Below are positions 5,829 through 44,880 of a DNA stretch of 64,000 nt, piece by piece. A program made the position numbers and the translations under genes. The stretch is from Rhodobacterales bacterium (GTDB lineage: Bacteria; Pseudomonadota; Alphaproteobacteria; Rhodobacterales; CAZPXZ01): assembly GCA_965217995.1 (NCBI GenBank), contig CBDCKB010000004.1, forward strand, positions 323,788 through 387,787. The letters run 5' to 3'. Positions within the stretch are counted from its first letter, which is position 1. Each line of letters starts with the position of its first letter. The notes beneath the pieces are model-generated. The model had not been told where the DNA came from, searched no databases, and worked only from the letters and a program-made list of their open reading frames with translations.

Positions 5829-7580
5829 TCATTTTCTGGCCTCCGACGGATCTTCCGCTGTGTCCAGGATCGGTTTGCGCAACCAGTCCAGAATTCTGTC
5901 CTCTCCCGCAATCGCCAGGTGAACCCGGGCCCTCGACATGGCTACATAGGGAAGTTCCCTTTTGTCCACCAGACTCTGGTCGGCGGCAAGCAGCACCACA
6001 GGACGCTCGAGACCCTTGAATCTCCGGATGCTGTCCACCACGATCGCGCCCTCGCACGGCTTCTCGCATCGGGTCGTTTCGCACCCGCCAAAGCGACCGT
6101 CCGATGTGAGGGCCTCGATGGCTTTCTCGCTGGGGACGAGAACGGCAATATCACCCGGCGGCACCCCCTGATCCGCAATCAGGCGACCGGCATATTCGGA
6201 AAGCACACGCCCGGTTGCCGCAAGCCCCTCCGCAGGCACCGGAAGCCATTCCACCTCGGTGCCCTCGGTGCCGGATGCCTCAATTTCGGAACCGACATAG
6301 AACCGGTGGACGGCGGCGTGGATCTGCAGCGTATTGCGCAGGTTCTTCACAAGACGAAAGCTGGATGCCTCCACATCTTTCGGCAGTTCTCCCGCCTCCT
6401 GATGGACCTGCTGGTTGCTGTCGTAGAACACCCGCAGGACACCCCCCGATTTGAGTCCGGTGTCGAGCGCAATCCACCAGAGTTTCCGGAAATCCTGTCC
6501 CTCATCCACGATGATCGCGTCATACCGCACATCCGGCAGGCGTTCGAACGCGGTCATCAGCACGTCCGGAGCCTGGTCGTACCATTCCCGGGACACCCGG
6601 GCGGGGTCATCCGGCGGCGTCCGGGACGTGGCATCCGACGGCGGATCGAGCCCGGCGCACTTTTTCATATATGCGCACAGACTGTGGAAGGTTCTGACCT
6701 CGAAGGCCGCATCTTCCCCCAGCCCCCGCTGCGCCCAGGCCGAAAGCGCGCGGTTGAAGCAGACAAACAGCACCCGCCGCCCCCCTTCGGCCTGTCTCGC
6801 CGCCTCCTCGAGGGCCAGCATGGTCTTGCCCGTGCCGGCCGCGCCGCTGATGGCCACCCGCGATTGCTCCCGGATCGACTCCAGGACCCAGAACTGGTTC
6901 CGGGTCAGAACCTCCAGCCTGCGGTCATCCGCCGACAGCAAATTCTGCAGCGGCATCCGGAAATGCACCGGGTTCGCCAGAATCTTCTCCAGCGCACGAA
7001 TGCCGTCATTGCCCAGCGCCTTCTCCCGGTCTTCCGCTTTCGGCGCCACGCCCATGCGGTTCCCGATCCACTCCCCGCTCCCGTCGCGACGGAAATCCTC
7101 ACAGCTCCAGAAGATCTCCCGCGGCCTGTCCGCCCCCAGAACCCCCTCGGGCAGGGAAGCGTCCGGCAGGACGACACCGTGCCGCATCCGGATATACCGC
7201 TGGTGCCAATCCGGGGTTGCCTTCAGCTTCGCAAGCAACTGATGCTTCGACGACCGCGCCTGCGAGACGGGATCCTTGATCCGATGCTCGACCCCGGCCC
7301 GGTCCCGGCTGGTCCACTGGTCGCTTTCCGGATCAAACGCAACCGCGCCACCCTTGACCTCCAGGACAAGAATCCCCCGCCGGGGATGCGCGACCACAAA
7401 ATCACATTCGCCGTCGACTTCTCCGCCATCCGGGCCGACCCCGAGCCACGGACACGCATAAAACACATGGAACGAACCGTCCAGAATCTGCTTCAGCCGC
7501 TCATAGACCTCGCATTCCGCCCGCCGCAGCGGGTCCCCCGCGACCTCCTGCGGCAACGATCTCGGCCACATGTTCGCCAT
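5829..7580 (-). CDS. NERD-domain protein fused to a UvrD-like (SF1) helicase/ATPase
   Basis: This is the real part of the 1751-aa track ORF, with ATG at 7580 (MANMWPRS...). The N-terminus is NERD-like (ECDFVVAHPRRGILVLEVKGG). It has Walker A (GAAGTGKT), IIVDEGQDF and a C-terminal FKGLERPVVLL motif. Confidence 0.8.
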   Translation of the reverse strand: MANMWPRSLPQEVAGDPLRRAECEVYERLKQILDGSFHVFYACPWLGVGPDGGEVDGECDFVVAHPRRGILVLEVKGGAVAFDPESDQWTSRDRAGVEHRIKDPVSQARSSKHQLLAKLKATPDWHQRYIRMRHGVVLPDASLPEGVLGADRPREIFWSCEDFRRDGSGEWIGNRMGVAPKAEDREKALGNDGIRALEKILANPVHFRMPLQNLLSADDRRLEVLTRNQFWVLESIREQSRVAISGAAGTGKTMLALEEAARQAEGGRRVLFVCFNRALSAWAQRGLGEDAAFEVRTFHSLCAYMKKCAGLDPPSDATSRTPPDDPARVSREWYDQAPDVLMTAFERLPDVRYDAIIVDEGQDFRKLWWIALDTGLKSGGVLRVFYDSNQQVHQEAGELPKDVEASSFRLVKNLRNTLQIHAAVHRFYVGSEIEASGTEGTEVEWLPVPAEGLAATGRVLSEYAGRLIADQGVPPGDIAVLVPSEKAIEALTSDGRFGGCETTRCEKPCEGAIVVDSIRRFKGLERPVVLLAADQSLVDKRELPYVAMSRARVHLAIAGEDRILDWLRKPILDTAEDPSEARK

Positions 7581-7820
7581 TGCACCCGCCCCTTCCTGTT
7601 GCGCATGGCAGCCGGTCCCGACCCGCCACCTGCCGCCGCGCAGCCCTGCCGGGTACCGATATCCTGCTGATCGGAGGGCAGTATAGGATGGGCAGTGTGG
7701 TATACAGCCCGAACGGCAACGACCCGTCATCCGCGGGTCGTGCGACCCCGGATTTCCGGCCAACCTCTTGCGCCGTTTCGGGCTATGGTATGCCGCTTTT
7801 ATCGTGCGACGGGAGGAACC

Positions 7821-9374
7821 ATGCCGAGACCAGCCCGCAACCGACAGAGACAGGGCGGCCATGGTGCCAACACCCGCGCCGCGGGGCCGGCTGTCGTGCA
7901 GCGCCCCTGGGGGCAGCCCGTCAACAACGACCGGTGCATCGAACCCCTCGACGAAGAGGGCGTGCACACCATCCATGACGGTGCCATGCGGATGCTCGAG
8001 GAGGTCGGCCTCGAAATCCTCCATGACGAGGCACTCGGTCTCCTGCGGGATGCCGGCGCCATCGTCGATGCCGACCGCCATCACGTGCGCATCGGCCGCG
8101 ACATTATCGAGAGCGCGATCGCGGATGCCCCCGAGGCGTTCGATGTCGTGCCCCGCAACCCCGAGCGCAAGATCCGGATCGGCGACCGGCATCTCGCCTT
8201 CTCGCCGGTCGGCAGCGCACCCAACGTGCAGGACATCGACCGCGGACGGCGCACCGGCAACCGGGAGGACTATCGCAACCTCATCCGCCTCGGCCAGTAT
8301 TTCAACTGCATCCACCTGATCGGCGGCTATCCGGTCGAGCCCATCGACCTGCACCCCTCCACCCGCCATCTCGAGGCGCATCTCGACAAGATGCTGATCT
8401 CCGACAAGGTCACCCACGCCTACAGTCTCGGCAAGGAGCGCGTGGCCGATGTGATCGAGATGGTGCGCATCGGCTCGCAGGTCAGCGAAACGGAATTCGA
8501 AGAGACCGCCCGGATGTTCACCAACATCAACACCAACTCGCCCATGAAGATCGACGGGCCGATGATGGACGGTGCCATGCGCTGCGCCGAGCGCGGCCAG
8601 GCGGTGGTGGTGACCCCCTTCACGCTGGCCGGCGCGATGGCGCCGATCACCCTCGCCGGGGCGGTGACCCAGCAGACCGCCGAGGGGCTCGCCGGAATCA
8701 CGGTCTGCCAGCTGCTCCGCCCCGGCGCGCGCTGCGTCTATGGAGGGTTCGTCTCCAATGTCGACATGAAGTCCGGGGCCCCGGCCTTCGGCACGCCGGA
8801 ATACATGCGCGGCGCGCAGATGGGCGGACAGATGGCCCGCTTCTACGGCCTGCCCTACCGGGCCTCGAACGTCAATGCCTCGAACATCCCGGACACGCAG
8901 AGTGTCTGGGAGTCGGCCTTCGCCCTCTGGGGGGTGGTCACGGGCGGCGTCAACATGATGTTCCATGCCGCCGGCTGGCTCGAGGGCGGGCTGTCGGCGA
9001 GCTATGAAAAATACGTGATCGACGTCGAGATGCTGAACTGGATCGGAGCCTATTTCGACCCGATCGAGATCAGCGAGGATGCCCTCGGCATCGAGGCCGT
9101 TCGGGAAGTCGGGCCGGGCGGGCATTTCTTCGGTTGCGAGCATACCCAGGCGCGCTACGAAAACGCCTTCCACGCGCCGTTTCTCAGCGACTGGCGGAAC
9201 TACGAGACCTGGGCCGAGGACGGGGCCGCCGACGCGACCCAGCGCGCCAATGGAATCTGGAAGAAAATCCTCCGGGAATTCGAGCCGGCGCCGATCGACC
9301 CGGCCGTGCGTGAGGAGCTCGAGGCCTTCGTCGCCCGACGGATCGAAGAAGGCGGCGCACCGACCGACTTCTGA
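7821..9374 (+). CDS. Trimethylamine methyltransferase (MttB) superfamily protein, non-pyrrolysine type
   Basis: ATG at 7821 follows gggagga. The sequence PLDEEGVHTIHDGAMRMLEEVGLEI...DAGAIVD is typical of MttB-family N-termini. There is no in-frame TAG. Confidence 0.85.
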   Translation: MPRPARNRQRQGGHGANTRAAGPAVVQRPWGQPVNNDRCIEPLDEEGVHTIHDGAMRMLEEVGLEILHDEALGLLRDAGAIVDADRHHVRIGRDIIESAIADAPEAFDVVPRNPERKIRIGDRHLAFSPVGSAPNVQDIDRGRRTGNREDYRNLIRLGQYFNCIHLIGGYPVEPIDLHPSTRHLEAHLDKMLISDKVTHAYSLGKERVADVIEMVRIGSQVSETEFEETARMFTNINTNSPMKIDGPMMDGAMRCAERGQAVVVTPFTLAGAMAPITLAGAVTQQTAEGLAGITVCQLLRPGARCVYGGFVSNVDMKSGAPAFGTPEYMRGAQMGGQMARFYGLPYRASNVNASNIPDTQSVWESAFALWGVVTGGVNMMFHAAGWLEGGLSASYEKYVIDVEMLNWIGAYFDPIEISEDALGIEAVREVGPGGHFFGCEHTQARYENAFHAPFLSDWRNYETWAEDGAADATQRANGIWKKILREFEPAPIDPAVREELEAFVARRIEEGGAPTDF

Positions 9375-9398
9375 AGCCAACCCAAAAGGAGAGCAGGA

Positions 9399-11825
9399 AT
9401 GAAGACACATGCGCAGGTAGTGGTCATCGGGGGCGGCGTGGTCGGCTGCTCGGTTCTCTACCATCTCGCCAAGAAAGGCTGCACGGACTCCCTTCTGATC
9501 GAGCGGCGGGAGCTGACCGCCGGCTCCTCCTGGCATGCCGCCGGGGGCATGCACATGCTCAACGGCGATCCGAATGTCGCCGGGCTGCAGAAATACACCA
9601 TGGATGTGATGGCCGAGATCGAGGAACTCTCGGGGCAGAGCTGCGGCGTCCACAAGACCGGCGGCGTGCTGCTGGCCGGGGACGAGAACCGCCTCGACTG
9701 GCTGCGGATGATGGCCGCCCGGGCGCGCTTCCACGGGGTCGAGCACCGCATCATCACCCCGGCCGAGGCGAAGGAACTGTTTCCGCTCGTCGACCCCTCG
9801 CATTTCGTAGGCGCCCTGCACGACACCACCACCGGCCATGTCGACCCGTCGGGAACGACCATCGCCTACGCCAAGGCCGCCCAGAAACTCGGGGCCGACA
9901 TCGTGCTCCGCAACCCGGTGGTCGATCTCCAGCCCCGCAGCGATGGCAGCTGGGATGTGGTCACCGAAGAAGGCACCGTCATCGCCGGGGCCGTGGTCAA
10001 TGCCGGCGGGCTGTGGGCGCGTGAGATCGGCCGCATGACCGGGCTGGAACTGCCGATCCTGGCCATGGAACACCACTACATCCTGACCGACACCATGCCG
10101 GAGGTTGTCGAACACACCGAAAAAACCGGCCGGGAGCTGCTCCACGCGACCGATTTCAGCGGCAACCTCTATCTGCGCCAGGAGCGCGACGGAATGCTGC
10201 TCGGCACCTACGAACAGGCCTGCGTGCCCTGGTCGCCGCAGGAGACCCCGGCGGATTTCGGCCCCGAACTGCTGCCCCCCGATATGGAACGCATCGCCCC
10301 CTCGCTCGAGGTCGGCTTCGAGCACTTCCCGGCCTTCGCCGGGGCCGGCATCCGGGAGGCGATCAACGGCCCCTTCACCTTTGCCCCGGACGGCAACCCG
10401 CTGATCGGGCCGGTGCGGGGGTTGCGCAATTACTGGTGCGCGGTCGGGGTGATGGCCGGGTTCTCGCAGGGCGGCGGGGTCGGCTTCGCACTCGCCAACT
10501 GGATGCTTGATGGAGATCCGGGCGCCGATATCTGGGGCATGGATATCGCCCGCTACGGCGACTGGACGACCATGGCCTACACCAACGCCAAGGTCCGGGA
10601 GAATTATTCGCGGCGCTTCCAGATCCGCTTCCCGAACGAGGAACTGCCCGCCGCCCGCATGCTGAGAACCAGCCCGCTCCACGACCGGCTGGAAGCGGCC
10701 GGGGCGGTCATGGGGGTCTCGGCCGGCATGGAGACCGCGCTGTGGTATGCGCCCGAGGGGGTGGAGGATGTCCTCTCCTTCCACCGTTCGACGGATTTCG
10801 AGCATGTCGGCGCGGAATGCCGGGCCGTGCGGGAATCGGTCGGCCTCGCGGACATCTCGATGTTCGCCAAATACGAGGTCACCGGCGAGGGCGCGCGCGG
10901 CTGGCTCGACCGGATGCTGGCCGGCCGCCTGCCGGAGCCCGGCCGGATGGCCCTGACGCCGATGCTCGACCGGCGCGGCAAGCTGATCGGCGACTTCACC
11001 ACCGCCAATCTCGGCGGCGAGCGGTATTTCCTGGTCGGATCGGGTGCCGCCGAGGAATACCACATGCGCTGGTTCACCGACCATGTGCCGCAGCAGGAAG
11101 ACGCGCAGATCACCTCCCTCGGCCTCGGCCTCACCGGGCTCTCCATTGCCGGGCCGAAGTCACGCGCCGTGCTGGAGGCGCTGGTCACCGAGGATGTTTC
11201 CTCCAAGGCCTTCCGCTTCTTCGATATCCGCGAGATGGCGGTGGGGACCGCACCCTGCCGCGTCGGCCGGGTCAGTTTCACCGGCGATCTCGGCTTCGAG
11301 ATCTGGTGCCAGGCCGAGTTCCACCGCAACCTCCACCTCCAATTGCTCGAGGCCGGCGCGGAGCAGGACATCCAGCACTATGGTCTGCGGGCACTCAACG
11401 CGCTCCGGCTCGAGAAGGGTTTTGGCTCCTGGGCGACCGAATACCGGCCGCTCTACGGGCCCGTCGAAGCCGGACTCGACCGCTTCGTCGCCTACGACAA
11501 GAACGCCGATTTCATCGGCCGCGAAGGAGCCCTGGCCGAGCGCGAAAACGGCGGAAGCCAGCGGCTGAAGCTGTTTGTCATCGATGCCGCCAATACCGAC
11601 GTGCTCGGCGACGAGCCGATCTGGCGAGACGGGAAGGTGTGCGGGCGGGTGACCTCCGGCGGCTACGCCCATGCCTCCGGAAAATCCGTGGCGCTTGGAT
11701 ACATTCCGAAGGAACTCGCGGATCAGGAAGAGGGCTGGCAGATCGAGATTCTCGACGATCTGCGCCCGGCCAGCATCCAGCAGAAGCCGCTCTTCGACCC
11801 GAAAAGCGAGCGCATGCTCGGCTGA
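9399..11825 (+). CDS. FAD-dependent dimethylglycine/sarcosine dehydrogenase-like oxidoreductase with a C-terminal GcvT-type aminomethyltransferase domain
   Basis: It has a dinucleotide-binding N-terminus (VVVIGGGVVGCSVLYHLAK) and SSWHAAGG. At about 800 aa its length fits a DAO+GCV_T architecture. An RBS aaaggagag lies upstream. Confidence 0.85.
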   Translation: MKTHAQVVVIGGGVVGCSVLYHLAKKGCTDSLLIERRELTAGSSWHAAGGMHMLNGDPNVAGLQKYTMDVMAEIEELSGQSCGVHKTGGVLLAGDENRLDWLRMMAARARFHGVEHRIITPAEAKELFPLVDPSHFVGALHDTTTGHVDPSGTTIAYAKAAQKLGADIVLRNPVVDLQPRSDGSWDVVTEEGTVIAGAVVNAGGLWAREIGRMTGLELPILAMEHHYILTDTMPEVVEHTEKTGRELLHATDFSGNLYLRQERDGMLLGTYEQACVPWSPQETPADFGPELLPPDMERIAPSLEVGFEHFPAFAGAGIREAINGPFTFAPDGNPLIGPVRGLRNYWCAVGVMAGFSQGGGVGFALANWMLDGDPGADIWGMDIARYGDWTTMAYTNAKVRENYSRRFQIRFPNEELPAARMLRTSPLHDRLEAAGAVMGVSAGMETALWYAPEGVEDVLSFHRSTDFEHVGAECRAVRESVGLADISMFAKYEVTGEGARGWLDRMLAGRLPEPGRMALTPMLDRRGKLIGDFTTANLGGERYFLVGSGAAEEYHMRWFTDHVPQQEDAQITSLGLGLTGLSIAGPKSRAVLEALVTEDVSSKAFRFFDIREMAVGTAPCRVGRVSFTGDLGFEIWCQAEFHRNLHLQLLEAGAEQDIQHYGLRALNALRLEKGFGSWATEYRPLYGPVEAGLDRFVAYDKNADFIGREGALAERENGGSQRLKLFVIDAANTDVLGDEPIWRDGKVCGRVTSGGYAHASGKSVALGYIPKELADQEEGWQIEILDDLRPASIQQKPLFDPKSERMLG

Positions 11826-35888: not shown

Positions 35889-37808
35889 TTACGTGCCGTG
35901 TAATAGAGAAGAAAAAAATCCTATTTCCGGTTGGTCCGGCAATCCCACTAATACAGATCTATCCAAGAACTGATTATACTGCTCGCAAGCTGTCTCAGGG
36001 GCGAAAACACAGGCATGGCATGCCGCAAGGGACAGTCTGTCGGAATCGTCAACTCCATAATTTTCCAAGATGCACAAGGGATCCGATGAGCACCATTGCA
36101 TCATCTGTATAGCCGATTTGATTACCTGTTGAATGCGAGTAGCTTCGCCCTGCCTTTGCAACCCCCCGAGTGTTCCGTCCGAGTCAGAGGTTGCAGTATA
36201 GATCAGAAGCCCCGCCATGTCAAGGTTCCCATTGCACACATATAGACGCTCACGTAAGGAGGCCGTCGAGTATCCACATTCCAGTGCAAGTCGGCGCATG
36301 AGTGCGTGTGCAAATGTGTGGACTAGCAAATAGCGGGCGGTTATCTTCTGCGCGGGCTTGCCTTCTTTATAGCGTCGCGCCCACTCTCTTTGCCACGCTT
36401 GGTCAACACCATCTGCGCGTTTCTTAATGTCACTGTTCGTTTCCCAAACGTGCAGCTGGTCATGATTAAATTCCAAGAAAATTCCTTCGCCACGAACTTC
36501 AATCGCCGGAAGCCAATTACGCCGAGAGGACGAAAGCGGAGCCATATACAAACTCTCTTCATCACCCGGGGGATTTATTCTAGTAAAACCCACCAATGCA
36601 CGCACTTCACGCAACCGCACAACACGCACCACGCGGCTTAAGAAAGGTTGCAGGCTACTAGGCAAGTTTTTTTCTACTCGTATTTCAAATTCGCCATGCG
36701 ATGTTTTTCCTTCCGTATCAGTGGTATTCTCTACTAGCTTGCGGTACTCTTCTTCGCGGATACTCAAACTAACTCTATCATTTTCCCTCTTAATTTGGTT
36801 TTCGATACGTTCTACAAGCTGTTCCGTAGTAGAAATACCATACTTTAAATATATCAATTCAATTTTTTTCTTTTGGTCGCCTTCTGCAAGCATAGAAATG
36901 ATTATTGCTCGATTTTCCGGTTTAACACTGACGATTGATGACCAAGAATCTCCGAGATCTTCCTTGAGCGTATCTGACCAAGGTGGAATGCTTAGAGCCG
37001 ACCGGATCACCGGAAAATATAAATTCGAAGCGGCGCGTTGCAACACACGCGGCTCTGAGTTACAGCTTTCATTCTTTGAAATTAACCATGGCCGCCGCCC
37101 TCTGCATGTGATTTTCCGTAAGATCAAAGCCTCGGCGCCAAAAATACCTTCCATGGATTGCTGTGCGCGACATTCACGACATTCTAGAATCAATCCAGCC
37201 AACCCAGCGCCTTTTGATATAAGATAAAGACTGCCTTGCTCCCCATTGTTATTGCAATCGGGCTTGTGCCTCACCCACCAATGCCACGGAAACTCATCCA
37301 AATGTCCCTTTTCGCATGCAACTACAAAGGGGCACGGGACTACAAAAACGTTACGCTTACCCGGAGCTCGATACGTGCATTGTGGGCAGAGCCGATAGGC
37401 ATGGCTGGAGGATTTATCCCATTCGGATGCAAGTGCAATGCGTTTGCATTCCGGACATTGTAACCATTCTGGAAATCGTACAGCAACGAGTGATCTGTCA
37501 TCAGACTTACCATCTTTATGGTCCCACTTGCGCTCATACACGACGGGCGGCAGGCGAAATCCTTGTACTGACAATTGCTTCTCCAAACGAGGTTCACTAA
37601 TTTTTTGTGGATTGTTTAGCCCCGCCGGAGGAAAAGCTGTGTCCCATTGCTCAAGCCCCGATACAACGGCAGACACGGGGCCGTCATCAACACGAAAGTC
37701 TACCACCGACCCTGGACCTCCCGTCATGATCACAGTGCTTCTGCGTAGTTTGCCCAAATTGTTATCTACCATTATCGTTCCTGCAGTAACCTTTCTTAAA
37801 GAATTCAC
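35889..37808 (-). CDS. DUF1998-domain protein, DrmB-like
   Basis: The GTG start overlaps the upstream stop (GTGA). The C-terminal Cys signature is WCSSDPLC...LAACHACVFAPETACEQYNQFLDRSVL. The N-terminus contains LRRSTVIMTGGPGSVVDF...LEQW. Confidence 0.7.
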   Translation of the reverse strand: MNSLRKVTAGTIMVDNNLGKLRRSTVIMTGGPGSVVDFRVDDGPVSAVVSGLEQWDTAFPPAGLNNPQKISEPRLEKQLSVQGFRLPPVVYERKWDHKDGKSDDRSLVAVRFPEWLQCPECKRIALASEWDKSSSHAYRLCPQCTYRAPGKRNVFVVPCPFVVACEKGHLDEFPWHWWVRHKPDCNNNGEQGSLYLISKGAGLAGLILECRECRAQQSMEGIFGAEALILRKITCRGRRPWLISKNESCNSEPRVLQRAASNLYFPVIRSALSIPPWSDTLKEDLGDSWSSIVSVKPENRAIIISMLAEGDQKKKIELIYLKYGISTTEQLVERIENQIKRENDRVSLSIREEEYRKLVENTTDTEGKTSHGEFEIRVEKNLPSSLQPFLSRVVRVVRLREVRALVGFTRINPPGDEESLYMAPLSSSRRNWLPAIEVRGEGIFLEFNHDQLHVWETNSDIKKRADGVDQAWQREWARRYKEGKPAQKITARYLLVHTFAHALMRRLALECGYSTASLRERLYVCNGNLDMAGLLIYTATSDSDGTLGGLQRQGEATRIQQVIKSAIQMMQWCSSDPLCILENYGVDDSDRLSLAACHACVFAPETACEQYNQFLDRSVLVGLPDQPEIGFFSSLLHGT

Positions 37809-40800
37809 TTGTTAAGTTTAAAACGCGTTGAAGCCTCAACGTCGCGCATGCTGTTCAATGTTGGCCAAGCCTCCCCTATGCTACGTCCCATCGCGCTAAG
37901 CGTAGCGGCCCTTTCTGCATCTTGGAGCAGTGAATCTGTTTTTGCCATCTTCCAATAACTTTGAGGATTACGAGTCTTCCAGTTGTCTAGGAGATCATTC
38001 AATTTTTCTCGTACAGACTCTCCTTCCTGTGAATCAATTTCTTTAGATCTTTCAACAATGTAGTTGATGATATTCTCGGTATCTTTAATAGCTTTATTGT
38101 TTAGTACCGGACGATCAAGCATTCCGGGCACTAAATGCCGCACTAGTGCTACTAACACGGCGTGTAGCGCTTTGTCTAGTGCCCTCGGCGCAAACGGAGT
38201 AACGCTAGCCGGCTCAACATCTCGATACAGCGTCTCATGCCACGCCGGGAAGGTTTCATAGTGTGAGCGGTCGCGTGCTTTCGCATTGTTAAATACGGTA
38301 ACCACCAAACCCGGGTCCTCGCCACGTCCGACACGACTTGTTGCTTGGATATATTCAGCAATTCCCTTTGGCTGACCAAACACCAGCATTAAACCAAGGC
38401 GAGGAATATCTACCCCAACACTCAGCATGTTGGTCGCGAGAACAACATCAAGTGCGTTTTGCTTATCATCCACAGGAATTGAGAGCTTGTCCAGCATCTC
38501 CCTAACTTCGGCTTGTGTACGTCGAGATGTCAACTCTGCTATCCATTTAGGCTTCCGGCGTGCACATTCCTCGCCTCGCCGTTTTGCAAGCATTTCAATG
38601 CTACGGTTTACATCATCATGCATTAAAACAAGAGCACCACCTAACTCCCGTAATGAGTTGAAATAAGAAACTAGCGTCCAATAGGAATCTCGTATCTTAT
38701 CATCAGTGGTAGCACCAGAGGCAGACTGGAGCAGTGACGCAGCCACTGCCTGGTATGTAAATTTTGCCGACCGGCCCGCTGTTGTTACACCCGTATAGCT
38801 TCTACCAGGATCCTTTCGGTCTACAACTGCAAAAGCAGAATCTTTAGCATCAATACCTGATGGAGGAAACTGTTCTGTCGTGCGGTTAAACAGAGATTTT
38901 ACCTGTTCGGGTGCCCGCTTGATTGTTGCTGTGGACCCAATAATTTTGGGAACCGCACCTCCACATGAAAACATGCGATCGATCGCAACTTCGTAAAGAC
39001 CAGCAACAGTTCCTAATGGCCCGGCAATAAGGTGAAGTTCATCTTGAAGAATAAGATCTGGTGGTTTTCGGTTACTTAGGTTAAACAGGTTGCTAATTTC
39101 TTTGCGCTTAACAATTTGTGCAAATTTATCAATTGTTCCAATCAGCAAGGTAGGCCTCTCCCGATATACGTCCTCGTCGACAGTCCAAACCGGAAGAGGA
39201 TTTTCGTGACAAAATAGAAGGCATTCTTTATTATGACACCGCACATGAATGGCAGAAGGTGGGTTCTCGTAAGGATTGCAAGTCAACTCCTCATGACATG
39301 CAGGACAATTCACAAGTTGCTTTGGTGTCGGTCGATCAGGGGCAGAAGGCTGTCTCAAGGCTGCGGCCGCATCGCACACTTTGTTTGGCACTGCATCACT
39401 TCCAACCCAGAGACCTATAGAGAAGGGAGTACTACCTAATTCATCCCTAGAACTCGACACACCTGCTTCGCATATGCGCCCTCGGCGAATTGCCTCACAG
39501 GCGAGTATAACTGATGCAGCGCGTGAGAACTGTTGCGTGGTCAGCAACCGAAGTGTGTACCTCATTATCGCAGCAACGCCACCGCCTTCGTCAGGATCAT
39601 CTCCGGCAGATAGCCTTCGATAGAAAGCAAGAAAGGCAATCAGTGCAAGATATGCCTCCGTCTTGCCACCGCCCGTAGGAAACCAAAGCAGATCCATAAT
39701 CTCTCTATCGGGATGTTCTCGATCAACTACAGAAGCCGCCGCAAGAAGAATAAAGCCAAGCTGGAACGGTCTCCACTCAAGCGGCTCACGCACTCCCTTT
39801 TTTAGATGATCCCACCCATACTGCTTTTCCATGGCAAGATTGGCCAAACTAAAAGCTCGCAACATCGTATCATCATTAGCAATCCACTCCGCGCCACTGG
39901 TCATTCGTGAATGAACCCGCTCGCAGGTTTCTATGTTTTCTGCGGCCTGATTTTGAAAAAATTCGGGAAGGGACGCCATTTCAGTTTTCTTAGCTCCGAT
40001 CCACTTCTTGTACGCCATCGGCAATTTTTGAAGGGCCTCTCCTAGTGCTGTCGGCTTTGCAGTCGCTAGCCATTGAGCTGAAAGTGGCTTATGCTTTGTA
40101 GAGTCACGCAATGCGTGAAAAACCTCATGCCCATGCCCGCTTGTCCTTGGAACCGCTGTGTTGGGAATCCAGCTCGTACCCACCATGCTGGCTATTCCTT
40201 GCTCTGAATTTGTTGCCTCCCACATGGCCGAGCAAGTATGCCCGGTTGCAAATTCATGAGCGTTTCGATACAATATATCTGCAATGGGACCGCTTTTATC
40301 CGACACAACATGCCGCACAGGTCGTGCAATTAGCTCCGTTCCTCCACCTCCGCTTGGCCAAATTTCTGTACAAACTTGAAACAACATCAACTTTTCTATA
40401 TCATCACGCTTCCTACTGTCATTAAGTCCCAAGCTTGCATTCACCAGAGTAACCGTTCCAAACGTTCGCTTTATATCATCCAAACATGATACAGCACGGA
40501 TATGCAGATTGACACCTGGAGGGCTCCCATGTTCTTCAAGATGAATATACCCTGAAGATTTCTTAAGTAGCACATCTTTTACGCTAATACTGTATGCGCG
40601 GCGTGTCCATTTCTTTTTTGCTTGTACATAACCATTGTTGCCCTCAGCGTGCTCAACTCTAGATACATCCGATTGGATATAGGTTGCGAAGCGAACCTTT
40701 ACATCTATTTTGGCATCCCCCGTTGTCGATTTTGTAGCGAAAGAAACTCCCGCAGAGCATGGCCGATTCAAGTGTAAGAGAGAAACACCTTCTTCGTTGC

Positions 40801-40996
40801 CGCTGCTTGCTGCGCTATCACTCTCTCCTGAAAGGCCTATCTGATCATCTTCTTCAGCCCCCACGCTGATTCTGCCCGGCCACAACATGCCCGTCAGATA
40901 CACATCCGATGGACGCCAGAACAAAATTTCGTTTTCTTCATATGGCCCCACCAAATCTTCTTTCAGACGGCTCAATACAATATCGCCAAAGGTCAT
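37805..40996 (-). CDS. Large SF2 (DEAD/DEAH-like) helicase, DrmA-like
   Basis: It carries motif I (FPTGGGKTEAYL), motif II (DELHLIAGPLG) and motifs V/VI (VLATNMLSVGVDIPRL, QATSRVGRG). The ATG overlaps the upstream stop (ATGA at 40993-40996). Confidence 0.7.
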   Translation of the reverse strand: MTFGDIVLSRLKEDLVGPYEENEILFWRPSDVYLTGMLWPGRISVGAEEDDQIGLSGESDSAASSGNEEGVSLLHLNRPCSAGVSFATKSTTGDAKIDVKVRFATYIQSDVSRVEHAEGNNGYVQAKKKWTRRAYSISVKDVLLKKSSGYIHLEEHGSPPGVNLHIRAVSCLDDIKRTFGTVTLVNASLGLNDSRKRDDIEKLMLFQVCTEIWPSGGGGTELIARPVRHVVSDKSGPIADILYRNAHEFATGHTCSAMWEATNSEQGIASMVGTSWIPNTAVPRTSGHGHEVFHALRDSTKHKPLSAQWLATAKPTALGEALQKLPMAYKKWIGAKKTEMASLPEFFQNQAAENIETCERVHSRMTSGAEWIANDDTMLRAFSLANLAMEKQYGWDHLKKGVREPLEWRPFQLGFILLAAASVVDREHPDREIMDLLWFPTGGGKTEAYLALIAFLAFYRRLSAGDDPDEGGGVAAIMRYTLRLLTTQQFSRAASVILACEAIRRGRICEAGVSSSRDELGSTPFSIGLWVGSDAVPNKVCDAAAALRQPSAPDRPTPKQLVNCPACHEELTCNPYENPPSAIHVRCHNKECLLFCHENPLPVWTVDEDVYRERPTLLIGTIDKFAQIVKRKEISNLFNLSNRKPPDLILQDELHLIAGPLGTVAGLYEVAIDRMFSCGGAVPKIIGSTATIKRAPEQVKSLFNRTTEQFPPSGIDAKDSAFAVVDRKDPGRSYTGVTTAGRSAKFTYQAVAASLLQSASGATTDDKIRDSYWTLVSYFNSLRELGGALVLMHDDVNRSIEMLAKRRGEECARRKPKWIAELTSRRTQAEVREMLDKLSIPVDDKQNALDVVLATNMLSVGVDIPRLGLMLVFGQPKGIAEYIQATSRVGRGEDPGLVVTVFNNAKARDRSHYETFPAWHETLYRDVEPASVTPFAPRALDKALHAVLVALVRHLVPGMLDRPVLNNKAIKDTENIINYIVERSKEIDSQEGESVREKLNDLLDNWKTRNPQSYWKMAKTDSLLQDAERAATLSAMGRSIGEAWPTLNSMRDVEASTRFKLNK

Positions 40997-43017
40997 AACT
41001 TCTGTCCTTTATATTGGTACTGAAAACACACCGCGCTGTACCCTAGCACTAGCGGTGCCAGCATGATACCGCTACTTCTCCATGGCTCGTGTAGATTTTG
41101 CCTTCTTTCTTCCGCCATATCCGATGGCACGACGATGGTGCGTACGCCCAACACATGCAAGTGGCAAATTTTGTTGGGCAAAGTTAATTTGTATCCAGAA
41201 AATTTCTTTTTATTGCTAATAATATCTTTTATACAGAACAAATCACTATTCACCTTCTTTGACAACACGGCAAGAAATTTACCTTGCCCTTCTTCTTTTA
41301 GTAAGTACGAAAAATTCATTTTACTATTAAGCTCGACAACCAAGGATACAACCTTTCCCGCGAAGCTGCTAATTCGCTCCTGGCTGACGTGTACATCACT
41401 CGAGTGCTCAAAAAAACCCTTTCCTGCCAAGCCGCCAACATTAATGTCACCGTCATGTCCGATTTCGACCTGTGCGCACAGATAGTTTCCCTTTCTCAAA
41501 TTGTTGTCCTTTACATGGTGATAAGCTCGACCGGATTTTTTAACTTTCTTAAACAATGGGCTATTTCCCTCACCGATCAGTAGCTGCGACCGCCCACGTG
41601 TCGCACCAACGAATATAACCCGCGCCTCTTCATCCTGGTTGCTATCGTTGGGTCGCATTTTAGGTAGCACAAGATGTACAATATCTGCCTCACGCCCCTT
41701 AGATGCATGGATCGTGCCTATGATGAACCCACACTGCCCCATCTCAGCATGGCACAATTCCGGTGGCGGGTTCTTTCTGCCTAGGTGCTTTCGTAATTTA
41801 TGCATATCCACGATTGTTGCCTCACAACCTGCAATACTAACTAGCTGCTCCCATGCGTGGTCACGTTCGCATGATAGAAAGGGCGAACCTTGTATTCTAT
41901 CTTCCCATAATTCTCCAAATCTCTTCTCACTTAGAATGGATCCCGTGTGCTCCGCAAGTGCTGCGCCGATCCAAGGTGCAAGGCACACGGGCAGTCCCGA
42001 CATTCGCACTCGATGCTGAATGCCTTCTCCCATCAGAAGCGAACTTCGAAGTAGCACATCGCCTCGCATGCGATACAAGATCAAGGCATCATTCTGATCG
42101 GGTGGTGTAAGAATTTCTTGTCCATTGTGACGCACCGCAATTTTGCCATGGGCGTGTCTTTTAATGTCTTCTCGAATTTCATCTAATTCTTTACTATCCG
42201 ATTCCTTCGTAACGGTCAGCACTTTGCGACGAGTGCTTGAAAAAATTTCCTGCAATTGTGGAGAGTCAGTACGATGCACACAGGTTAAGTTACATTCGTT
42301 GAATTCACCTGCTTCCCTTCCACGAATTTTGTCAGAAAATGACAGCTTCCAAAATCTGTCTTCACCACGAATATACGGCACATCAATAAATCCATGAATG
42401 GCTTGGGCTTCATCTGAGAATATGGTCACGCCGCATTTCGAGGATAGTCTTAAAATAAACTCAACAACAAAATCCGCGCGCATTCCAACAAAATCCTGAG
42501 CTTCATCAACTATCAGATGTTCGATGTCTTTAAGATAATTGGAAACTCTTTGATTCTGGTCATCGCGAATTAGATCAAGTGCACTTTTAATATTTTCTTC
42601 ATAGGACCTTTGTGCTTTTTCTTCATAGGACCTTTGTGCTTTTTCTTCCCCATCGAATCTTGAGCAAATGTCCCAAGCATGCGAATCTAGTGTGCCGATT
42701 TTTACCGCATAGGCAGCATATGTATCTTCAAGGTGGGTTCTAATTCGATTACGAATTTCTCGCACGGCAGCGCGCGTGAAACTTATCATCAAAATTCGAT
42801 TAGGCTTAACCAATTTTTTGCCAATCAATTGAGACACACGACCACAAGCGACCGCTGTCTTGCCCGTCCCCGGCCCCGCATCAACTAACAAGCGTCCCTC
42901 GTGACAAGAATCAATAACACTTCTTTGCGATTGATCCCACTCAATGCGATTAGGAGATATGATTTCAGGCCCGTTCATGGATTGGTTCTCATACTTTCTA
43001 CTGCTTGCCCTCATCAT
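40993..43017 (-). CDS. UvrD/Rep-like SF1 helicase with an unassigned approximately 200-aa C-terminal domain
   Basis: It has Walker A (DAGPGTGKTAV), LIVDEAQDF, GTIHASKGREADIVHL and VIFVGATRGRSQL. The start is uncertain: ATG 43017, GTG 43044 or ATG 42978. Confidence 0.7.
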   Translation of the reverse strand: MMRASSRKYENQSMNGPEIISPNRIEWDQSQRSVIDSCHEGRLLVDAGPGTGKTAVACGRVSQLIGKKLVKPNRILMISFTRAAVREIRNRIRTHLEDTYAAYAVKIGTLDSHAWDICSRFDGEEKAQRSYEEKAQRSYEENIKSALDLIRDDQNQRVSNYLKDIEHLIVDEAQDFVGMRADFVVEFILRLSSKCGVTIFSDEAQAIHGFIDVPYIRGEDRFWKLSFSDKIRGREAGEFNECNLTCVHRTDSPQLQEIFSSTRRKVLTVTKESDSKELDEIREDIKRHAHGKIAVRHNGQEILTPPDQNDALILYRMRGDVLLRSSLLMGEGIQHRVRMSGLPVCLAPWIGAALAEHTGSILSEKRFGELWEDRIQGSPFLSCERDHAWEQLVSIAGCEATIVDMHKLRKHLGRKNPPPELCHAEMGQCGFIIGTIHASKGREADIVHLVLPKMRPNDSNQDEEARVIFVGATRGRSQLLIGEGNSPLFKKVKKSGRAYHHVKDNNLRKGNYLCAQVEIGHDGDINVGGLAGKGFFEHSSDVHVSQERISSFAGKVVSLVVELNSKMNFSYLLKEEGQGKFLAVLSKKVNSDLFCIKDIISNKKKFSGYKLTLPNKICHLHVLGVRTIVVPSDMAEERRQNLHEPWRSSGIMLAPLVLGYSAVCFQYQYKGQKL
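42597..42644 (-). repeat. Perfect 24-bp tandem duplication inside the UvrD-like gene
   Basis: cttcataggacctttgtgcttttt occurs twice, encoding EEKAQRSY EEKAQRSY. Confidence 0.9.
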
Positions 43018-43206
43018 CGTTTTTCTGCTTCTCACAGCAGACACTGCATTGTCAATACACGCTTTACCAACACGGGTCAGCAGATTCGTGCGTGAAACAA
43101 TTCCGTTCCTCTTTCCGTCCCCCTTGGCATGCCATACATGATGACCCCTGCGATTTTTTATAGCTACCCAAAATGACTCTCGTGTATCTTTTTCAACTAG
43201 CTAATT

Positions 43207-43794
43207 TTAATTTCCTTGCCTAGAGTGCTCATCAGCTGATTCAAATTTTTGCTTCAACCATGCTAGAGCTACCTGTTGGTCTGCACGCGTTGCGCGGCGC
43301 AACTGTGCCAGCAACCATGTCCATGAAGGAGGCTCGATTGCCAGATTTTTTGCACCCTGATTGCAAGTGCTGCACAATGCCCGCAAATTCGACTGCTCAT
43401 CCTTCCCGCCATGGCTTCGGTCCACGATATGCCCAATATGTAAACGCACTTTACGACCCTCATCATCTTTGTCGCCGGCACCCATGCCACACATCTGACA
43501 TGTACACCCGTTCCTTGTCAAAACTAGAGCCCGGAGGCGGTGAGATATAGGGGAAGCGAACTTATAAGCCTTTCCGGTCGGTGGTGATTTTTCGAGAATA
43601 TATTGACCTGGTGCAAGATCCGCACGATCATTATGAGAGCTGATATCCCAGCCCTCTGCACGAAGGTCGCGCAAGCGCCGTGCCCACTCCACCGCACCAT
43701 TTGCAGCTTTTTGCAGTTCACTACTGTTGACCACAATGCCCACCTTACCCTCCAAATACGCCGCAAGGGCGGCTTTTGAACCTACGCGAGGCAT
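43207..43794 (-). CDS. HNH endonuclease (candidate restriction component)
   Basis: CTCQMCG...HIGHIVDRSHGGKDEQSNLRALCSTCNQ is a CxxC...HH...N...CxxC HNH zinc-finger. The ATG at 43794 overlaps the methyltransferase stop by 13 nt. Confidence 0.7.
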   Translation of the reverse strand: MPRVGSKAALAAYLEGKVGIVVNSSELQKAANGAVEWARRLRDLRAEGWDISSHNDRADLAPGQYILEKSPPTGKAYKFASPISHRLRALVLTRNGCTCQMCGMGAGDKDDEGRKVRLHIGHIVDRSHGGKDEQSNLRALCSTCNQGAKNLAIEPPSWTWLLAQLRRATRADQQVALAWLKQKFESADEHSRQGN

Positions 43795-44705
43795 TTGGCA
43801 ATGGCACGCGCCATGGCGTGCCCGAGATCAACAGGTAGGGCGTTTCCAACTTGCCTGTATCGTTGCGTTTTGCTTCCTGCCAATGTCCAATTCGTCGGCA
43901 GGCTCTGAAGGCGGGCTGCCATTTCGACGGTAAGCCTTGGTACACCAGAGAATTTTTTTGGAGGAGATGAATCCGCTATGCCAAGACCATCAACGCCAAG
44001 TGCTGCCCAAGCCGCACGCGCACGTGTAGGGCCAAGATCGGGGCCGCCATGCTTGCGCGAGCCACCTACAAGCGTCGGTGCCGGACGGTTTGCCTGTGCG
44101 GCCCAGTCCTTTGCTCGTTCCCATCCATTTTCCGCCATCAGTGATACCAAAGCCTCGCCAACCGTAGCGCCCTTCTTCCCGTTCGGCTTCGGCCACTCAA
44201 ATGCCAACGAGCTATCAATGGCGACCAGAAATGAACGAGTGCGGTGTTGTGCTGCACCATAATCGTGAGCGTCCAGCATCCTCCAATCGACCCAATATCC
44301 CATATCCTCCAATTGGTGCCGAATGTCCTCCCGATATGTAGCAAACCGCTTCGTCATCAGGCCGCGCACATTTTCGATCAGCACCGCGCGGGGTTCGGTT
44401 TCCATAACGATCTGCAACAGAACCGGAAATAGATCGCGCTCATCGGCGGCTCCATGTTGCTTGCCTGCAACAGAGAACGGCGGGCACGGTAGTCCCGCCG
44501 CCACAACATCTACAGCTCCACGCCAATACGTAGCGTCGAACCGATTTAGATCTGCTTCGATAACATTCCAATAAGGACGGTTTATGCGCAATGTAGCGCA
44601 GGCGTGGGGATCGCTATCAATCAATGCCGCATGATCAAAGCCCGCCTGCTCAAAGCCAAGGGCCTGGCCACCAGCACCAGCGCAGAGTTCAAGGGTAGTC
44701 GGCAT
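43782..44705 (-). CDS. DNA (cytosine-5)-methyltransferase
   Basis: It has motif I (ELCAGAGGQALG), motif IV (GLPCPPFSVAG), motif VI (ENVRGL), motif VIII (QHRTR) and motif X (GNALPV). ATG at 44705. Confidence 0.85.
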   Translation of the reverse strand: MPTTLELCAGAGGQALGFEQAGFDHAALIDSDPHACATLRINRPYWNVIEADLNRFDATYWRGAVDVVAAGLPCPPFSVAGKQHGAADERDLFPVLLQIVMETEPRAVLIENVRGLMTKRFATYREDIRHQLEDMGYWVDWRMLDAHDYGAAQHRTRSFLVAIDSSLAFEWPKPNGKKGATVGEALVSLMAENGWERAKDWAAQANRPAPTLVGGSRKHGGPDLGPTRARAAWAALGVDGLGIADSSPPKKFSGVPRLTVEMAARLQSLPTNWTLAGSKTQRYRQVGNALPVDLGHAMARAIAKCLA

Positions 44706-44880
44706 TAGACAATTAGATCTCGAGAGCACAACCGGTTGCCAATCATGCCCTCAAGCATGCCTGCCATTTCGCCGATGGTATCACGCAATCGATCATTGTG
44801 ACAATAGACGAATTCGCCCGCATAGCGATCAAGGCACTTCTCGGGACAGTGACGAGAAGTATCCTGCGTCATCCGATCGC
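44705..44880 (-). pseudogene. IS1595-family (ISXO2-like) transposase C-terminal remnant
   Basis: HCPEKCLDRYAGEFVYCHNDRLRDTIGEMAGMLEGMIGNRLCSRDLIV resembles the conserved IS1595 C-terminus (H.s.khL.rY..EF.fR.N.R..dt...m......g.rL.Y.dLi). The N-terminal DDE part is absent. Confidence 0.45.

Follow-up and report, generated by a model that had tools for sequence, protein, structure and literature searches.

DISARM is built on a core of DrmA and DrmB, which is autoinhibited and loads on single-stranded DNA (ssDNA) with a 5' overhang, DrmC being dispensable (PMC9142583); this loading takes place where invading DNA has ssDNA ends (Bravo et al. 2022). The steps of DISARM that come after the loading are not understood, nor is what the accessory proteins DrmD and DrmE contribute (PMC9142583). 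DISARM calls by PADLOC require DrmC plus either DrmD/DrmMI (DISARM I) or DrmE/DrmMII (DISARM II), and in agreement with a preliminary description of the locus studied here, UvrD-like helicases are not among the components in these definitions (PMC9252829). In ARMADA II, another system based on a YprA-family helicase, a UvrD-like helicase named ArmD is required (10.1101/2025.09.15.676423; PMC13463889). Here we describe a stretch of 64,000 nucleotides from a Rhodobacterales bacterium (GCA_965217995.1, contig CBDCKB010000004.1, positions 323,788 to 387,787; hereafter the window) in which the drmA and drmB genes are preceded by a gene for a UvrD-like superfamily 1 (SF1) helicase, here called Hel, with a family-specific C-terminal domain (CTD). 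While the DrmA/DrmB core is known from DISARM, we found no description in the searchable literature of a Hel accessory with its CTD heading that core. We surmise that Hel is a dedicated SF1 ATPase/helicase subunit of a distinct, horizontally spread DISARM-like cassette and that its basic, non-catalytic CTD tethers Hel to DrmAB and/or DNA, a reading to which we assign a probability of roughly 0.6.

The hel gene lies on the minus strand (40993..43044) as a maximal open reading frame (ORF) of 683 residues beginning with GTG, at the place where it had first been noticed with no strand given; the likely start, however, is the ATG at 42978 (residue 23), which yields 661 residues and is the start used in the genome's own record (P0004). 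All four SF1 motifs quoted in the preliminary description were found in the protein, namely GPGTGKT at residues 57-63, LIVDEAQDF at 177-185, GTIHASKGREADIVHL at 443-458 and FVGATRGRS at 478-486. Pfam recognized UvrD-helicase (1.2e-23, residues 37-160), AAA_19 (to residue 219) and UvrD_C/UvrD_C_2 (442-490), and the helicase core (residues 30-493; 41566..42957, minus strand) comprises the Q motif along with motifs I, Ia, II, III, IV, V and VI. Since these motifs are invariant or nearly so in a family alignment of 52 sequences reaching down to 22% identity, with invariant columns at Q40, G59/G61/K62, R91, D180/E181/Q183/D184, D211/Q214, R258, H446 and R483, Hel should be an active ATPase or translocase. 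The AlphaFold2 (AF2) model of full-length Hel (predicted local distance difference test score, pLDDT, 88; predicted template modeling score, pTM, 0.88) found UvrD, PcrA and Rep as best structures in Foldseek, with E values down to 3e-16 and a whole-chain TM score of only ~0.4; Pfam, alignment and fold matches all place Hel among the SF1 helicases of UvrD/Rep/PcrA type. As read from the secondary structure of the model, its 1B and 2B inserts (~119-175 and 345-435) are much shorter than those of UvrD. More than 1300 relatives were recovered by a word-indexed search, and because the best 120 of them, at 45-57% identity, align over 82-99% of the query (mostly 94-98%), the CTD belongs to the Hel family. 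In public records these relatives carry the generic name 'UvrD-helicase domain-containing protein', and a search of phage genomes disclosed no relative encoded in any of them. Long family members with an N-terminal extension have no extra Pfam domain in it, except for one AIPR fusion.

The two genes downstream of hel, drmA (37805..40996, minus strand, 1063 residues) and drmB (35889..37808, minus strand; DUF1998/MZB), had been described as DrmA-like and DrmB-like, and both turned out to encode true DrmA and DrmB on the basis of PADLOC profiles (1e-214 and 8e-88), the Pfam MZB domain in DrmB and the solved Serratia DrmAB structure (7S9V_A, 3e-136; 7S9V_B, 3e-88 over the full length), an identity that these profile scores put far beyond chance. 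The window thus contains the DISARM core, with DrmA and a separately encoded, adjacent DrmB/DUF1998 protein. As stated in the preliminary description, the stop codon of hel overlaps the start codon of drmA; the overlap reads ATGA, with an AAGGA Shine-Dalgarno sequence upstream, and hel is predicted to be translationally coupled to drmA. The GTG of drmB also overlaps the drmA stop, with the ATG at 37772, preceded by an AGGAA Shine-Dalgarno sequence, being the likelier start. The hel-drmA-drmB island has a GC content of 46% within a genome of 62-70% GC.

The genomic context of Hel was evaluated by scanning one genome from each GTDB species with an alignment, which yielded 80 loci (L001-L080) where a single-sequence scan had given none. 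A full-core Hel relative is found in 37 of the 80, and among the 34 with enough downstream DNA to evaluate, drmA and then drmB follow hel directly on the same strand in 33; two degraded or divergent members (L031 and L039) also carry both genes. By comparison, drmA/drmB were found next to a generic UvrD, i.e. a match confined to the N-terminus, in 0 of 41 loci, so the helicase is not placed at random with respect to drmAB, a prospect that had been raised when the gene was first noticed. The gap from the end of the hel ORF to drmA is 0-50 nt in nearly all loci. The order is hel, drmA, drmB, often with a nuclease gene next (a NERD-helicase in about half of the cassettes, a phospholipase D-type (PLD) DrmC in a few) and a C5 cytosine DNA methyltransferase (MTase) gene nearby. 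Hosts belong to eight phyla: Pseudomonadota (alpha, beta and gamma), Thermodesulfobacteriota, Bacteroidota, Synergistota, Elusimicrobiota, Verrucomicrobiota, Planctomycetota and Actinomycetota. The hel-drmA-drmB order also occurs on two annotated plasmids (Rhizobium rhizogenes and Azospirillum ramasamyi), with the genes generically named, and on three metagenome contigs, including that of the AIPR-Hel fusion. In the latter (P0247, a JGI metagenome contig), an AIPR_N plus AIPR abortive-infection module is N-terminal to Hel-CTD in a protein of 1243 residues, with DrmA-like and DUF1998 genes next to it.

A few loci depart from this pattern. In three Paracoccaceae loci (L007:11785-13824, L011:11782-13821 and L015:11779-13818), there is a paralogous second Hel, giving the order Hel-Hel'-DrmA-DrmB-NERD, and the second copies have intact motifs and a CTD of their own. 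Four other copies look decayed or odd: the 512-residue helicase of L026 has neither a CTD nor DrmAB, the L019 helicase is truncated, the Hel, DrmA and DrmB matches in L031 are fragmentary, and in L002 the helicase match is interrupted by an in-frame stop after six bases.

When 401 genomes were drawn evenly from the window's class, a DrmA-like gene was detected in 10, and Hel only in the window's genome. A DrmA tree placed 29 of the 32 DrmAs linked to a triad in one clade (support 100/100) whose members come from different phyla; the other three, which are actinobacterial, stand apart on long branches, and all triad-linked DrmAs, these three included, may still have a single origin. Pairwise identities of the Hel core, CTD, DrmA and DrmB correlate with one another (Spearman rho 0.79-0.96). 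Taken together, a DrmA clade crossing phyla and correlated identities of the genes indicate that the cassette moves and diverges as a unit.

The CTD (residues 494-683; 40996..41565, minus strand) is a basic domain of alpha/beta type. It corresponds to the tail of about 200 residues for which the preliminary description had recognized no family, and it comprises 190 residues starting with NSPLFKKVKKSGRAYHHV at residue 494. Pfam (nothing beyond residue 493), PADLOC and a profile-based search through PDB sequences gave no match to it. When folded alone by AF2, the CTD reached a pLDDT of 92.8 and a pTM of 0.86, and Foldseek with this model returned nothing significant from the PDB (best E 0.56, TM at most 0.26) or BFVD (best E 0.21), so that 'no structural relative' here refers to these two databases at Foldseek sensitivity. 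In the absence of a fold or sequence match, we rejected the CTD as the Tudor-like tail of UvrD/PcrA, and also as a 2B domain, given that 2B is inserted into 2A. The ordinary UvrD 2B or C-terminal extension, named in the preliminary description as an outcome that would refute its reading, was thus not what we found. We likewise rejected the notion that the CTD began as the N-terminal domain of DrmA and was separated from it when the gene boundary shifted, as comparison of the CTD with long-form DrmA N-termini, triad DrmA and DrmB gave negative hmmsearch scores and hhalign probabilities of at most 0.2%; short-form DrmAs occurring without Hel also weigh against this idea.

We searched 1.84 billion representative proteins with a CTD profile, which matched 722 clusters, 474 of them at E <= 1e-10, and in all 150 matches listed (of the 722 clusters) the domain is situated at the extreme C-terminus. 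Among six short matches that we checked, four are fragments in which a UvrD_C motif immediately precedes the domain and the other two are not long enough to show any Pfam domain, while three long matches all contain the helicase core, one being the AIPR-Hel fusion. With every match checked being of this helicase type, the CTD appears to be confined to the Hel family, and the earlier suggestion of a system-specific C-terminal module held up. A tail of 141-233 residues is present in every complete family member. No other part of the cassette evolves as fast as the CTD, which has a mean identity of 26%. In most members the domain is basic, with a pI of ~9-10 and frequently a terminus rich in Arg and Lys, whereas the Hel core is acidic. 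No polar residue of the CTD is common to all clades.

Based on its position, composition and distribution, we favor a role for the CTD as a non-catalytic adaptor to DrmAB, DNA or both, because the domain is basic and fast-evolving; this is in keeping with the partner-binding option raised in the preliminary description. We propose that Hel would be produced in a fixed ratio with DrmA via translational coupling and would serve as an accessory motor, active on ssDNA and working together with DrmAB, with the CTD docking Hel on DrmAB and/or DNA and thereby bringing SF1 and SF2 motors onto the same substrate. Hel may then unwind or strip invading DNA alongside DrmAB, with degradation being left to a separate nuclease, for which the candidates in the window would be a neighboring HNH restriction-modification (R-M) pair or a NERD-helicase 28 kb away. 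The requirement for ArmD in ARMADA II provides a precedent for a UvrD-like accessory motor of this kind. A bolder version, which we hold only tentatively and consider rather doubtful, is that the CTD is a new fold physically coupling SF1 Hel to SF2 DrmAB in a dual-motor anti-phage machine, and that the cassette is a third widespread DISARM-like class missed by catalogues.

Several observations weigh against the notion of a dedicated subunit with a non-catalytic CTD. Within the main clade, a set of polar residues in the CTD (R506, E527, D533, Q555, D601, E653 and S658) is conserved; the clades of Actinobacteria and roseobacters, which retain synteny, no longer have this set. The co-divergence of the genes shows only that they are inherited together. 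The island in the window is of mosaic composition, and promoter and terminator scans performed no better there than on shuffled sequence.

Among the rival explanations, the one that fares best, although we think it unlikely, is that the CTD is a dimerization domain, forming Hel homodimers, or heterodimers where there are two paralogues, with no contact to DrmAB. UvrD-family enzymes depend on dimers for DNA unwinding, and the M. tuberculosis UvrD1 dimer is among the structures matched by the Hel fold; furthermore, the tandem paralogues in the three Paracoccaceae loci, each with intact motifs and CTD, hint at a heterodimer. However, dimerization leaves the strict adjacency and translational coupling to drmA unexplained, and the rapid divergence of the CTD is a better fit to a partner- or target-specific surface.

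Less probable again is a catalytic CTD, in the form of a divergent nuclease or some other effector, which would make Hel a helicase-nuclease like AddA, RecB or AdnB. The position of the CTD behind an SF1 helicase mirrors that in RecB, AddA and AdnAB, five of the residues conserved in the main clade (E527, D533, Q555, D601 and E653) might suit such a role, a stretch of alpha-beta-beta-beta-alpha-beta secondary structure in the model appears by eye reminiscent of PD-(D/E)xK enzymes, and 14 cassettes, including that of the window, have no cis nuclease gene after drmB. Nonetheless, there was no nuclease fold among the Foldseek matches already cited, no (D/E)xK, HNH, PLD or Toprim signature was found in the CTD, nor was a conserved RecB-type D...(D/E)xK motif, and most cassettes encode a separate nuclease (NERD or PLD). 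Given that the polar set is absent from two clades despite retained synteny, with the window itself having N at the D573 position, no set of catalytic residues is conserved across clades, which renders a nuclease role unlikely. The nuclease option raised in the preliminary description thus found no support, while the CTD of the main clade may yet have an enzymatic role. Finally, that Hel is an ordinary repair or housekeeping UvrD paralogue merely adjoining DrmAB in an island, a view favored by little else than its generic naming in public records, is highly improbable in light of synteny conserved in 33 of 34 loci across eight phyla with genes overlapping or nearly abutting, of separate housekeeping SF1 helicases encoded elsewhere in the genome and of an island so much poorer in GC than its host.

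By tblastn count, 20 of 39 cassettes have a NERD plus UvrD-type helicase-nuclease gene that lies 5-33 nt downstream of drmB, a PLD DrmC takes its place in three, neither is present in 14, including the window and the compositionally similar L083, and the remaining two lie on contigs ending too soon to judge. In the window, the closest homologue of these cis-encoded fourth genes is a NERD plus UvrD-type helicase-nuclease gene on the minus strand at 5829..7580, i.e. 28 kb from drmB. It aligns with them from residue 1 over the full length at 36-53% identity, retains an intact NERD motif (DGECDF...EVKGG), and has as its nearest relatives the fourth genes of L017, L003 and L084, the loci with triads nearest to that of the window. 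Its identity ranks correlate with those of Hel, DrmA and DrmB (0.55-0.63; p 0.004-0.014), and its family is found in only four of the 401 class genomes, the other three copies being 31-32% identical. On the other hand, the GC content at third codon positions (GC3) of this gene is 0.77 vs. 0.41-0.45 for the triad, unlike the cis arrangements, in every one of which the fourth gene is near the triad (within ~0.15, usually within 0.05), and the gene therefore did not arrive with the triad when that was recently transferred. Possibly, it is what remains of an older, resident system of four genes, or it serves the triad in trans as a partner. The same gene forms the end of a 1751-residue ORF (5829-11084, minus strand), of which only the last 583 codons (from MANMWPR) match anything, the upstream part overlapping plus-strand genes; this long ORF is probably an artefact of open frames in high-GC DNA.

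In Gordonia (L039:16629-18233), the gene after drmB is not a NERD-helicase and holds a DNSVDAGA box, which suggests a GHKL/MORC-type ATPase; it may be an alternative fourth component. In another alphaproteobacterium (G014:C1:1385924-1391307), a distant NERD-helicase (32% identity) is located ~2 kb from a different DrmA-like gene without Hel; from this proximity, NERD-helicases may pair more generally with DrmA-type helicases.

Upstream of hel in the window are a C5 MTase gene (43782..44729, minus strand; Pfam DNA_methylase 1e-61; PADLOC DruM/MTase_II) and, overlapping it, a gene for a small HNH endonuclease (43207..43794, minus strand; Pfam HNH 8e-10; PADLOC REase_II 1e-9). The MTase fits DruM and type II MTase profiles (1e-122) better than DrmMII profiles (1.6e-36), and its GC3 is 0.52, compared with 0.41-0.45 for the triad. 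A C5 MTase adjoins the cassette in six of seven members of the window's clade, but these MTases are not orthologous, at only 24-32% identity; it is plausible that the window MTase is an exchangeable, candidate self-marking module. No homologue of the HNH protein was found in the 80 scanned reference-genome loci (L001-L080), and the protein probably supplies the nuclease to a type II R-M pair next to the cassette, of which it would not be a conserved part. Across the family, C5 MTases, often with Vsr, adjoin many cassettes without being orthologous to each other, and their nuclease partners vary, being HNH in the window, EcoRII-like in L002 and L083, and McrBC-like genes on plasmid pC5.7d. On this R. 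rhizogenes plasmid (L081, 3051-8516), genes for CopG, a C5 MTase, a 568-residue P-loop protein, DUF2357 (McrC-like) and Vsr are located directly upstream of a four-gene cassette and constitute a composite modification plus type IV-like restriction block. Elsewhere, a gene of ~1570 residues with a TmtA-like N-terminus and a ResIII plus Helicase_C C-terminus is found upstream of the cassette (L008:4218-8924 and L035:5284-9993, with similar genes in L010 and L037). Roseobacter loci instead have an SNF2-like gene of 979 residues along with a gene of 928-1017 residues without assigned function, and an SNF2-like gene is also near the distant cassettes L030, L033, L034, L036 and L038.

With steps beyond DNA loading so poorly defined in DISARM, a cassette whose accessory is a recognizable SF1 helicase with intact motifs would offer a tractable handle on the role of an accessory motor, and neither PDB nor BFVD yielded a structural relative of its CTD, a domain predicted with confidence. 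The cassette is also common, with 722 CTD clusters, hosts in at least eight phyla and carriage on plasmids, all under generic names only in public annotation. As PADLOC requires DrmC plus DrmD/DrmMI or DrmE/DrmMII (PMC9252829), its DISARM I and II definitions are not satisfied by the Hel cassette, and censuses may miss it or report an incomplete DISARM. A preprint on the YprA family mentions 'many uncharacterized DISARM-like ... classes', and the Hel cassette is not described there (10.1101/2025.09.15.676423); in the searchable literature, we found no name or description for it, nor for any DISARM class with a UvrD or NERD protein. We considered whether the 'DISARM-like cassette' that Bell et al. 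2024 link to McrBC might be the Hel triad, and rejected this because the figure legend lists YprA, DUF1998, SWI2/SNF2 and PglX, an ARMADA-like set.

How, then, does the Hel cassette compare with known systems? With class 2 DISARM, it shares a split DrmA/DrmB core orthologous to the solved DrmAB, a C5 MTase that is often adjacent and, in a few cassettes, a PLD DrmC. In that class, Ofir and colleagues reportedly placed DrmE in 2018 in the slot directly upstream of drmA, the one that hel occupies here. In the Hel cassette, by contrast, the accessory is an SF1 UvrD-like helicase with a CTD and not DrmE, and the nuclease most often encoded is a NERD-helicase rather than DrmC. The DrmE profile PDLC02636, the one DrmE model used, did not match the helicase gene at E <= 1 in five cassette-bearing genomes, and PADLOC profiles gave no DrmE match for Hel residues 209-683; for DrmC, the island has no PLD gene, and the only PLDc_2 matches of the genome are far away. 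With class 1 DISARM, the cassette has in common a DrmAB core and a second accessory motor near drmA, as drmD precedes the core triplet there, but the motor is SF1 (UvrD-like) in the one and SF2/SNF2 (DrmD) in the other, and neither a match to the DrmMI profile PDLC02640 in the window's genome nor an SNF2 gene in the island was detected.

ARMADA II resembles the Hel cassette in using a UvrD-family helicase as accessory of a YprA-family helicase system. ArmD has an N-terminal RelE-like domain and is encoded downstream of ArmC, a fused YprA-DUF1998-Vsr protein, together with ArmA (SNF2) and ArmB (PglX) (PMC13463889), whereas Hel has ~30 residues and no domain before the Q motif, a CTD of its own and a position upstream of split DrmA/DrmB; Pfam and PADLOC revealed no PglX or SNF2 gene in the island. 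GajB of Gabija is likewise a UvrD-like SF1 fold in phage defense, and GajB profiles are the best PADLOC matches of Hel (1.8e-20), but most of their coverage falls on residues ~33-130, and a further, weak stretch lies at ~440-490 (the UvrD_C motif). GajB structures rank only 36-41 in the Hel fold search, behind UvrD, PcrA and Rep; moreover, GajB has no such CTD, and the neighbors in the window are HNH and DrmA rather than GajA. By these profile, domain and neighborhood comparisons, Hel is distinct from DrmE, DrmD, GajB and ArmD. Lastly, although RecBCD, AddAB and AdnAB differ from the Hel cassette in that the second motor here is SF2 DrmAB, the CTD has no nuclease fold or motif and homology lies only in the SF1 core, they offer a possible analogy, with two motors on one DNA end, an SF1 helicase bearing an extra C-terminal domain and a PD-(D/E)xK (NERD) nuclease.

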